This document shows, piece by piece, positions 45,001 to 48,000 of a stretch of 64,000 nucleotides of DNA. Every line of letters begins with the position of its first letter. The stretch's first letter is position 1. The stretch comes from Escherichia coli (GTDB lineage Bacteria; Pseudomonadota; Gammaproteobacteria; Enterobacterales; Enterobacteriaceae): NCBI RefSeq assembly GCF_041886205.1, contig NZ_CP169029.1. One strand, given 5' to 3'. The position numbers were made by a program.

Positions 45001-48000
45001 CTGTATTTCATCGACCAGCCGCACCAGCACATCTGCCTGATTCGCCAGTTGTTTGCTTTCCGGGGCATTGAGTTTAGCCGCGCTCTCCGCCAGGGACTGT
45101 GCGGGTTCTTTCAGCGCATCGCCAATGTTTTTCATAAAGGTCATCCGCCCCTGCTGGTTTTTCTCATACAGACGCTGCGCCTGCTTGAGTTTCTTGTTTA
45201 CCAGCACTTCGCGATCCTGATCGCGAATAATGAAAATTTGTGTGCGCGGCGCGACCTGGCTGCGGAACATGCGGATCTCATACAGCTCGTTATTGATCGT
45301 CGCCTGAATAATCCCCTGATGCTGTTCCGCCATGGTGGTGATGTTTTGCAGATTCAAATGCGGCAGCAAATGATCGGCATTTTTGTTACTTATGACAGTG
45401 CGGTTCGATTCCTGATCGTGAACCAGCAGGCCGAGCGGCAGCAGTGAGACTATCTCTTCATTGATTGCCCGTAAAATGCGCAATTCGTTATTGACCGCCG
45501 TGTTGGGTAGACTTTCTGTACTGCGACTGGAGAAATGGCGGAATGTGGTATAGCCAAATAACGCCAGCGCCAGCAAACCGATGTTCAGCAGCAGTGGCAG
45601 CAGAATGTTTTGCAACGTATCCAGCAATAAGGTGCCATAAGGAACCTGCCAGACCAGGCGCATATCGGTAGAGTTGAGTGCCGAGGAGATTTCAATCTTC
45701 GTACTGTTAAAGTGGATACTGACGCTATCCGTTCCTTCTTTCTCATTATCATTGTCTCCCGTTGCCGTCGCGTCTGGCTCAAGGCGGAAACTGTCCAGCG
45801 GCATACCCGGTGGGATCAAATCATTAATCGGCAGATCAAAAGCCACGACCGTTGCCAGATGTCCTGGCTGGTTAAAGGTAGTACGCAATGTAAAGTAATG
45901 ACCGTTCTGCCAGGCCAGGCGGCGCATGTTAGAAAAGCTTTCGCGTTCATCGAGGGCGTTGGCCTGTTGCAACATCTCTGCACGACGTGAATCAACAATG
46001 TCGCTGACGGTCGATTCTTTAAATCCGGAGGTGAGATCTTTAAGGGGTAGGGTTGAGATCAGCACCAGACTGTTATCCTGACCATTCAGGTAATACATCG
46101 ACCACGGTACATTTTCTGCGCCCCACAATGTATCCAGATAAGTGGACATCCGCTGAGTCATCTCAAGCGTTGAGTTGTCGTGAGAGCCAAAGATTAACGC
46201 TTCCGTTTTGCGGCGTGGTTTCTCCAGATAGTAGACATCCTGTTTCAGGCGCGTCTCTTGTAAACCTTCGCCGGAGGAGGGGGAGGTCGTCGCGGCAATG
46301 TTGTCGTAGATCTGCCAGGTCACGTAACGCCAGTTATCGACGCGCTTTTGGATAGCATGGGTAATGTCGACAATCTGGTAACTTTTATCTTTCAGCCAGG
46401 CGTTAACGGCGCTTTGTACCATTACACCCATCGTCACCAGTAACACAATGATCAACAGTAAAAAGAAGCGGGTAATGCTCCCCGGTAGGAGTGAAAAGCG
46501 GGTCGTGGCCGTTGTCTCTTTCTGACGCATTCGTGTTTATGACCTGTTAAAACTTCGCGAAGTGATAGGGCAGTATAAAGGGTACAGTGTGAAATTCCAG
46601 ACTCTTACCTGATTGATGATTCTCTATTCTCCCGTGATATTTATCATCCTGCATTGGGGGAAATAGATGTACAAGCGCCATTTTGCTGTACAAATAACCT
46701 ACAAAAAGCCCAACGAAATTAATTGCAAATAAACGAAGATTGCTGGAAATTATGCTGATGTTAATTATTTGTGAAATAGTTAACAAGAGTTATAGTTTTT
46801 CTGTGGTAGCACAGAATAATGAAAGTGTGTAAAGAAGGGTAAAAAAAACCGGATGCGAGGCATCCGGTTGAAATAGGGGTAAACAGACATTCAGAAATGA
46901 ATGACGGTAATAAATAAAGTTAATGATGATAGCGGGAGATATTCTAGTTGCGAGTGAAGGTTTTGTTTTGACATTCAGTGCTGTCAAATACTTAAGAATA
47001 AGTTATTGATTTTAACCTTGAATTATTATTGCTTGATGTTAGGTGCTTATTTCGCCATTCCGCAATAATCTTAAAAAGTTCCCTTGCATTTACATTTTGA
47101 AACATCTATAGCGATAAATGAAACATCTTAAAAGTTTTAGTATCATATTCGTGTTGGATTATTCTGCATTTTTGGGGAGAATGGACTTGCCGACTGATTA
47201 ATGAGGGTTAATCAGTATGCAGTGGCATAAAAAAGCAAATAAAGGCATATAACAGAGGGTTAATAACATGAAAGTTAAAGTACTGTCCCTCCTGGTCCCA
47301 GCTCTGCTGGTAGCAGGCGCAGCAAACGCTGCTGAAGTTTACAACAAAGACGGCAACAAATTAGATCTGTACGGTAAAGTAGACGGCCTGCACTATTTCT
47401 CGGACGACAAGTCTGTAGATGGCGACCAGACCTACATGCGTCTTGGCTTCAAAGGTGAAACTCAGGTTACTGACCAGCTGACCGGTTACGGCCAGTGGGA
47501 ATATCAGATCCAGGGCAACGCTCCGGAAAGCGAAAACAACTCCTGGACCCGTGTGGCATTTGCTGGTCTTAAATTCCAGGACATCGGTTCTATCGACTAT
47601 GGTCGTAACTACGGCGTAGTTTACGACGTAACTTCCTGGACCGACGTACTGCCAGAATTCGGTGGCGACACTTACGGTTCTGACAACTTTATGCAGCAGC
47701 GTGGTAACGGCTTCGCGACCTACCGTAACACTGACTTCTTCGGTCTGGTTGATGGCCTGAACTTTGCTGTTCAGTACCAGGGCCAGAATGGCAGCGTAAG
47801 CGGTGAAAATGATCCGGATTTCACTGGTCATGGCATCACCAACAATGGTCGTAAAGCTCTGCGTCAGAACGGCGACGGCGTTGGCGGATCTATCACTTAT
47901 GATTACGAAGGCTTTGGTATCGGTGGTGCGATCTCCAGCTCCAAACGTACCTGGGATCAGAACAACACTGGTCTGATCGGTACTGGCGACCGTGCTGAAA

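Follow-up and report, generated by a model that had tools for sequence, protein, structure and literature searches.

The micF gene and its control region beside ompC in Escherichia coli

The micF–ompC locus has been known since 1984, and the established mechanism of the MicF small RNA reportedly goes back to the work of Mizuno (1984) and of Andersen and Delihas (1990), both cited in PMC5745476. MicF is encoded divergently to ompC and pairs with ompF mRNA over its start codon and ribosome-binding site, preventing translation initiation (PMC5745476). Reviews (including PMC5745476) describe binding of OmpR to the micF promoter region and activation of micF by it when osmolarity is high, and control of the micF promoter (micFp) by MarA, SoxS and Rob is well documented (PMC12282887). 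A parallel is provided by micC–ompN. In both cases a small RNA gene is divergent from a porin gene, and the small RNA represses a different porin by pairing close to its ribosome-binding site (PMC5745476). However, MicC belongs to another RNA family and targets ompC, whereas MicF targets ompF, and OmpR represses MicC, the opposite of its effect on micF (PMC5745476).

The DNA analysed here, a 64,000-nucleotide stretch of an E. coli genome that is referred to throughout as the window, carries an intact micF–ompC locus of the textbook kind. An earlier note, made from the sequence of the window, had called it a known system, and the locus is indeed an ordinary, intact and already known E. coli micF beside ompC. 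Its features are collected in Table 1.

Table 1. Features of the rcsD–micF–ompC region, in window positions
Feature	Coordinates	Strand	Basis and remarks
rcsD, same-strand downstream neighbour of micF	43858..46530	-	NCBIfam NF007907 RcsD, 1566 bits; annotation of K-12 and strain wlxctx60
Spurious ORF, 79 aa, TTG start, in the micF–rcsD spacer	46547..46786	-	No overlap with micF; downstream of the terminator
Spurious ORF, 65 aa, TTG start, through the micF promoter and micF	46790..46987	-	No family match; drifting ends
micF, 93-nt MicF small RNA	46841..46933	-	+1 at 46933; full-length Rfam RF00033; 92/93 identical to K-12 micF
Rho-independent terminator: 10-bp stem (46847-46869), 3-nt loop, 8-U tract	46841..46869	-	Terminator scan and fold
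MicF internal stem-loop (nt 31-46)	46888..46903	-	Predicted MFE fold and Rfam consensus
MicF nt 1-33, antisense region for the ompF mRNA ribosome-binding site and AUG	46901..46933	-	Duplex computation
Putative micF -10 hexamer TAGAAT (-13..-8)	46941..46946	-	Read from the sequence; assigned by spacing to the annotated +1
mar/sox/rob box ACAGCACTGAATGTCAAAA	46966..46984	-	-51..-33 of micF, overlaps the -35; one mismatch to AYNGCACNNWNNRYYAAAY
OmpR binding block: C1 (47089-47108), C2 (47109-47128), C3 (47129-47148)	47089..47148	+	Three 20-bp sites, each of two 10-bp half-sites
Putative ompC core promoter: -35-like TTGGAT (47154-47159), -10 GAGAAT (47178-47183)	47154..47183	+	Hexamers read from the sequence
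ompC 5' untranslated leader	47189..47267	+	Probable start ~47189 ±2 nt, placed from the ChIP-exo peak centre at -83
ompC, porin OmpC, 375 aa	47268..48395	+	NCBIfam NF007841 'porin OmpC', 756.5 bits vs cut-off 484

Identity and conservation of the micF gene

The earlier note had matched 93 nt of the minus strand to MicF and had named an Rfam covariance-model search and an alignment to K-12 micF as checks. Both have been run and bear the match out. When the whole 64-kb window was scanned with cmscan and Rfam 15, the MicF family (RF00033) was found at 46841–46934 on the minus strand. It scored 116.8 bits where the gathering score is 79 (E = 9.5e-18), and the match is not truncated, covering model positions 1–94 of 94. 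It is the sole Rfam match in the region, since a permissive rescan of 46300–47500 returned no family besides MicF, and the Rfam scans gave no match to MicC in the window. Alignment with K-12 micF (b4439) leaves one difference, at 46852.

In K-12 MG1655, 'small regulatory RNA MicF' is annotated as an ncRNA of 93 nt at 2313084–2313176 of NC_000913.3, ompC lying on the opposite strand with an end at 2312749 and rcsD coming after micF; the window is in the reverse complement of this orientation. The gene, its length, its offset from ompC and its neighbours (ada–apbE/ftp–ompC–micF–rcsD–rcsB) are all shared, apbE and then ada lying beyond ompC in the window. Thus micF is divergent from ompC and upstream of rcsD, in the same order as in K-12. 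The 335 bp that the earlier note had placed between micF and ompC is the difference between the micF +1 at 46933 and the ompC ATG at 47268 (334 intervening bases), and is the same in K-12.

The rcsD–ompC intergenic region differs from that of K-12 at just eight positions. Besides 46852, these are one base at promoter position -6 (46939) and, downstream of micF, five substitutions and a 1-nt indel. None falls in 46940–47267, which is identical base for base, and experiments on the K-12 control region therefore apply here. The ompC alleles differ too, the encoded protein having 375 amino acids in the window and 367 in K-12, with 346 of 376 aligned columns identical and the indels in variable regions. 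Of 5426 complete E. coli genomes, 5376 contain the rcsD–ompC intergenic region, several of them at 100% identity. Strain wlxctx60 is collinear with the window over its full 64,000 bases, from which it differs by 12 mismatches and no indels.

The MicF RNA is predicted to fold with an energy of -21.4 kcal/mol (z -5.4), none of 200 shuffles being as stable. It begins with about 33 nt that are rich in A/U and unstructured; a small hairpin follows internally, and the RNA closes with a GC-rich terminator stem-loop and 8 U. The terminal hairpin and U-tract described in the earlier note were recovered by the terminator scan, as a 10-bp stem running from 46869 to 46847 and then a run of T. A Rho-independent terminator with such a U-tract would supply the 3' module typical of Hfq-dependent small RNAs.

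Species-representative genomes were scanned with a degenerate pattern built on the 5' end of MicF, which gave at least 120 loci in many genera of the Enterobacteriaceae, a set that stops short of more distant genera. Among the matches listed are Escherichia, Salmonella, Citrobacter, Enterobacter, Klebsiella, Raoultella, Kluyvera, Cedecea, Buttiauxella and Atlantibacter. Across the at least 120 loci, an ompC homologue is divergent at 322–345 bp wherever there is enough flank, and rcsD follows micF at 394–644 bp. Nucleotides 1–33 of MicF are nearly invariant in 103 sequences among the matches listed, an invariance that is partly built in, because 25 of the 28 leading nucleotides were prescribed by the search pattern.

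The helices, too, are maintained. In the same 103 sequences among the matches listed, 98% of cells in the two MicF helices are in standard pairs, as against 14–38% when the partners are slid, and seven pairs have changes on both sides, a number matched by none of 500 shuffles. Covariation is most evident in the terminator, where six of the ten pairs have changed on both sides (102 distinct sequences, among the matches listed). The internal stem-loop is paired in 99.7% of cells in the aligned MicF sequences among the matches listed; five of its six pairs never vary there, so that covariation adds little. On this evidence, 46841–46933 of the minus strand is very likely to be a functional micF, whose sigma-70 promoter depends on activators and points away from ompC, a reading to which we assign a probability of about 0.96.

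Pairing of MicF with ompF

By computation, the 5' end of MicF is complementary to the translation-initiation region of ompF. Nucleotides 1–33 form 25 bp with ompF positions -17 to +11, covering the Shine–Dalgarno sequence and the AUG, at an energy of -27.1 kcal/mol that was reached by 1 of 2000 shuffled seeds and by none of 2000 shuffled targets (z -4.7 and -5.7). The ompF leader of strain wlxctx60 is identical to that of K-12 and gives the same result for the MicF seed, and 5077 E. coli genomes carry the leader at 99% identity or more. The signal is confined to the 5' region. Full-length MicF against the ompF leader (RNAduplex) did no better than shuffles (z -1.4), the full-length duplex being uninformative because long interior loops let shuffles score equally; the 33-nt 5' segment was used in its place.

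Three other potential pairings were considered. A seed scan of the whole window found one non-self site at -29 kcal/mol, at 52937–52981 on the minus strand, which is antisense to yojI and full of loops and was judged to be due to chance. In the same scan, the seed against the ompC start region gave -21.3 kcal/mol, within the background. Pairing with lrp of strain wlxctx60 was rejected as weak (-20.3 kcal/mol, with an 18-nt interior loop and an energy equalled by 11 of 1000 shuffles).

The computed pairing agrees with the established mechanism, in which MicF together with Hfq would base-pair with the ompF leader, and this pairing would block binding of the 30S ribosome and destabilise the message, leaving less OmpF porin. 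For K-12, the literature documents an RNA of about 93 nt that reduces OmpF (PMC5745476; PMC12282887). Of these steps the pairing alone was computed here; the block to translation and the part played by Hfq are taken from the literature.

The divergent control region

The -35 position of micF (46964–46969, minus strand) reads AAAACA, a weak match, while the -10 hexamer is mostly kept across genera among the matches listed. A simple promoter scan found 2 sites where 2.9 are expected by chance, and the micF promoter, with its weak -35, went undetected by it. The proximal control element of micF, which is absent from the earlier note, is a mar/sox/rob box. It was sought with the consensus AYnGCACnnWnnRYYAAAYn, expected at or overlapping the -35. 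Window-wide, the 3 matches to this consensus are not significant against 1.16 expected, and the weight of the box comes from its position and conservation: it stands at -51 in 88 and at -50 in 13 of 108 loci (101/108), and few blocks between the genes are conserved as well, both among the matches listed. Judged in this way, micF appears to have a promoter of the mar/sox/rob regulon type. A box lying over a weak -35 would let MarA, SoxS and Rob induce micF in response to antibiotics, redox stress and chemical stress.

The earlier note had described repeated OmpR-type half-sites in the DNA between micF and ompC. Half-sites are present there, but they form a single 60-bp block instead of being spread through it. 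The names C1, C2 and C3 and the boundaries of the sites are those that we take to have been set by the OmpR footprinting literature. Within the block the direct repeat TGAAACATCT occurs twice, 21 bp apart, and the arrangement, identical in sequence to that of K-12, is one of tandem 20-bp OmpR sites with phased 10-bp half-sites. A 17-mer consensus for OmpR, GTTACATTTTGTTACAT, has been published (PMC5438342). With up to three mismatches allowed, it has one match in the 64-kb window, at 47089; this is not significant window-wide (0.21 expected, and at least one match in 18 of 100 shuffles), and its weight lies in its position. Across genera the block is conserved, with C1 to C3 measuring 40 bp in 106 of 108 loci among the matches listed; the stretch at 47050–47072 is poorly conserved.

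Binding data from K-12 are in accord with this placement. Seo (2017) reported a ChIP-exo peak, P18 'ompC/micF', at 2310906–2310960 of NC_000913.2, with its centre at -83 from the ompC start (PMC5438342 supplement). A peak of this kind cannot tell which promoter is served. It maps to 47079–47133 of the window, onto the OmpR repeats, by way of an offset of +1978 between NC_000913.2 and NC_000913.3 that we assume to be correct, its sole corroboration being that the peak lands on those repeats and that a sensible ompC start site results.

With respect to that start site, the OmpR block lies at about -100 to -40. The ompC core promoter is itself a conserved block, the distance from C1 to the -10 region being 89–90 bp in 88 of 91 loci among the matches listed. 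The leader is 66–83 nt long across genera, again among the matches listed, and an inverted repeat at 47188–47221 forms a hairpin at its 5' end. At high osmolarity, OmpR-P would fill C1–C3 and activate ompC, and according to the literature it would also raise micF. OmpC would therefore rise, and OmpF would be turned off post-transcriptionally.

Spacing across genera was used to ask whether the block keeps register with either promoter. The distance from the micF +1 to C1 is 154–159 bp in 106 of 108 loci, and that from the micF +1 to the ompC start site is 254–259 bp in every one of 91 loci, which represent many genera, both among the matches listed. The ompC leader and the micF–rcsD spacer, by contrast, vary freely in length. 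C1–C3 are in register with both promoters across genera, which fits a single constrained control unit; a dense packing of independent sites would fit as well. The fixed spacing between micF and C1 is, as a property of the sequence, consistent with shared OmpR control, and we infer only that a single C1–C3 block may serve both promoters. The further step, that the micF–ompC control region is one length-locked unit, is tentative and somewhat doubtful. If it were true, OmpR-P at C1–C3, perhaps with a DNA-bending protein, would activate both promoters in a geometry that tolerates almost no indels.

One alternative is that C1–C3 serve ompC only, and that micF relies on its own proximal elements and depends on OmpR indirectly or via other sites. 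The block is at the classic activator position for ompC and at a fixed distance from its -10 region, but is 156–215 bp from the micF +1 (-156 to -215), too far for conventional direct contact with RNA polymerase. Moreover, the mar/sox/rob box is the only conserved element beside the micF core promoter, and a ChIP-exo peak between divergent genes is credited to both by proximity. This alternative is nevertheless unlikely, since the reviews cited at the outset report OmpR both binding the micF promoter region and activating micF at high osmolarity, and since the interval from the micF +1 to C1 is held within 154–159 bp while the micF–rcsD spacer on its other side ranges over 250 bp (among the matches listed).

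Open frames and annotation

The earlier note had held that the ORF track misses micF, and RefSeq/PGAP records with the exact sequence do list nothing between ompC and rcsD. It had also reported two spurious ORFs across micF. Both frames exist and both are non-coding, but only the 65-aa frame overlaps the gene; the 79-aa frame is outside even the coordinates that the note had itself given for the locus.

A dual-function locus, with a genuine small protein encoded by one of the two, is barely credible, although frames of 65 and 79 codons are open and the longer is open in K-12 as well, at 96% identity. Each starts with TTG, neither has an above-threshold match in Pfam or NCBIfam, and the curated K-12 annotation has no CDS at either. 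For the 79-aa frame, a Pfam hit to Mpv17_PMP22 with 16.2 bits against a cut-off of 27 was rejected as noise. The 65-aa frame begins upstream of the micF transcription start, 54 nt before the +1 and inside the mar/sox/rob box, with no visible Shine–Dalgarno sequence. Its start and stop shift between species, giving a median length of 38 aa among the matches listed, and within Escherichia its end varies (+144, +174 and +213) because of an indel after the terminator. The 79-aa frame is interrupted by in-frame stops in three further genomes of Escherichia. Against K-12, its translated alignment shows three residue differences, each of them an amino-acid change. The 'conservation' of its C-terminus is that of a DNA-level block, probably the rcsD promoter, in which TATACT lies about 45 nt upstream of rcsD.

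Equally improbable is that the locus is a decayed or silent relic with a mere family resemblance to micF, as might be read into the two bases, 46852 in the terminator and 46939 at promoter -6, at which it departs from K-12: the change at 46852 (RNA nt 82), from U in K-12 to C in the window, strengthens the terminator stem by turning a G·U into a G-C pair, which is both the Rfam consensus state and the commonest state in the Enterobacteriaceae (GC 51, AU 33, GU 18, among the matches listed); the seed, -10, mar/sox/rob box and U-tract are all intact; and several other genomes of E. coli carry the same allele at 100% identity.

A functional micF thus stands as the preferred reading, and in this respect the result is a point of annotation that opens no new question. 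Recording the gene prevents mis-annotation, because pipelines omit the RNA and a mechanical ORF list lays a false 65-codon ORF over it. MicF regulates how permeable the outer membrane is and how antibiotics are taken up through OmpF. All that is mildly new is how tightly the length of the divergent promoter region is kept across genera. If this region does prove to be a length-locked unit, the micF and ompC promoters would be mechanically coupled, not merely adjacent.

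Spacing between micF and ompC

The distance from the micF transcription start to the inferred ompC transcription start was 254-259 bp in all 91 Enterobacteriaceae loci measured among the matches listed (46934-47189 in the window). By contrast, the flanking distances vary freely among the loci listed, the ompC leader from 66 to 83 nt and the micF-rcsD spacer from 394 to 644 bp. Upstream of micF lies a perfect TTGACA hexamer, whose TTG is where the spurious ORF running through micF (46790-46987, minus strand) has its 'start codon'. Since no -10 is found at a usable spacing from this hexamer, it probably plays no part in a promoter.

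Features located in the window
Feature	Coordinates	Strand	Sequence	Remarks
Marbox (mar/sox/rob box) consensus, exact match	11218-11236	-	ACCGCACACATTATTAAAT	glpT-glpA intergenic region
inaA	17850-18500	+		same window as micF
naRNA4 (Rfam RF02564)	42991-43067	+		62.9 bits
naRNA4 (Rfam RF02564)	43105-43181	+		66.0 bits
Conserved DNA block	46571-46600	-	CTGGAATTTCACACTGTACCCTTTATACTGCCC	~45 nt upstream of rcsD start
TTGACA hexamer, perfect	46982-46987	-	TTGACA	-54 to -49 of micF
Inverted repeat, 14 nt	47188-47221	+	TGCCGACTGATTAA / TTAATCAGTATGCA	86% complementary; extreme 5' end of ompC leader

The micF-rcsD spacer and its annotation

The block upstream of rcsD, probably the -10 of the rcsD promoter, is conserved in more than 100 loci, with TTTATACTG within it nearly invariant. 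This DNA block accounts for the seeming conservation of the C-terminus of the second spurious ORF (46547-46786, minus strand). At one of the micF-ompC loci from other genomes, L002 (NZ_CP027140.1), the feature table lists nothing in the rcsD-ompC gap, and the locus tags skip from CSC06_RS20830 (rcsD) to CSC06_RS20845 (ompC); perhaps an earlier annotation called two features there that were then withdrawn, or the two may be of a type omitted from the table.

Repeats, marbox matches and a pseudogene elsewhere in the window

The two naRNA4 matches, both of which barely exceed the family threshold of 59.5, are palindromic repeats of the REP/BIME type. They fill the 199-bp gap in which the ends of rcsC (40142-42991) and rcsB (43191-43841) converge. 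Across the window the marbox consensus matches no more often than chance would allow (3 matches against 1.16 expected), and the exact match between glpT and glpA may therefore be without meaning. Another member of the mar/sox/rob regulon is inaA, and the window's marbox search at up to one mismatch gave no match at its promoter. Between inaA and glpQ, the annotation of the near-identical E. coli strain wlxctx60 places a frameshifted hypothetical-protein pseudogene (14015-15085), with genes for an MFS transporter and for a LysR regulator beside it.

The ompC allele and its leader

The inverted repeat at the start of the ompC leader is highly conserved across genera and, as predicted from sequence, would form a hairpin at the 5' end of the ompC mRNA. 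The coding region (47268-48395, plus strand) specifies 375 aa, as against 367 aa in K-12, and 346 of 376 aligned columns are identical, the insertions and substitutions being grouped in a few variable stretches. At 99% identity or better, 46531-48500 is matched by only 69 complete E. coli genomes, whereas the intergenic region by itself is matched by 2485. The difference in ompC is ordinary hypervariability adjoining a very stable control region.
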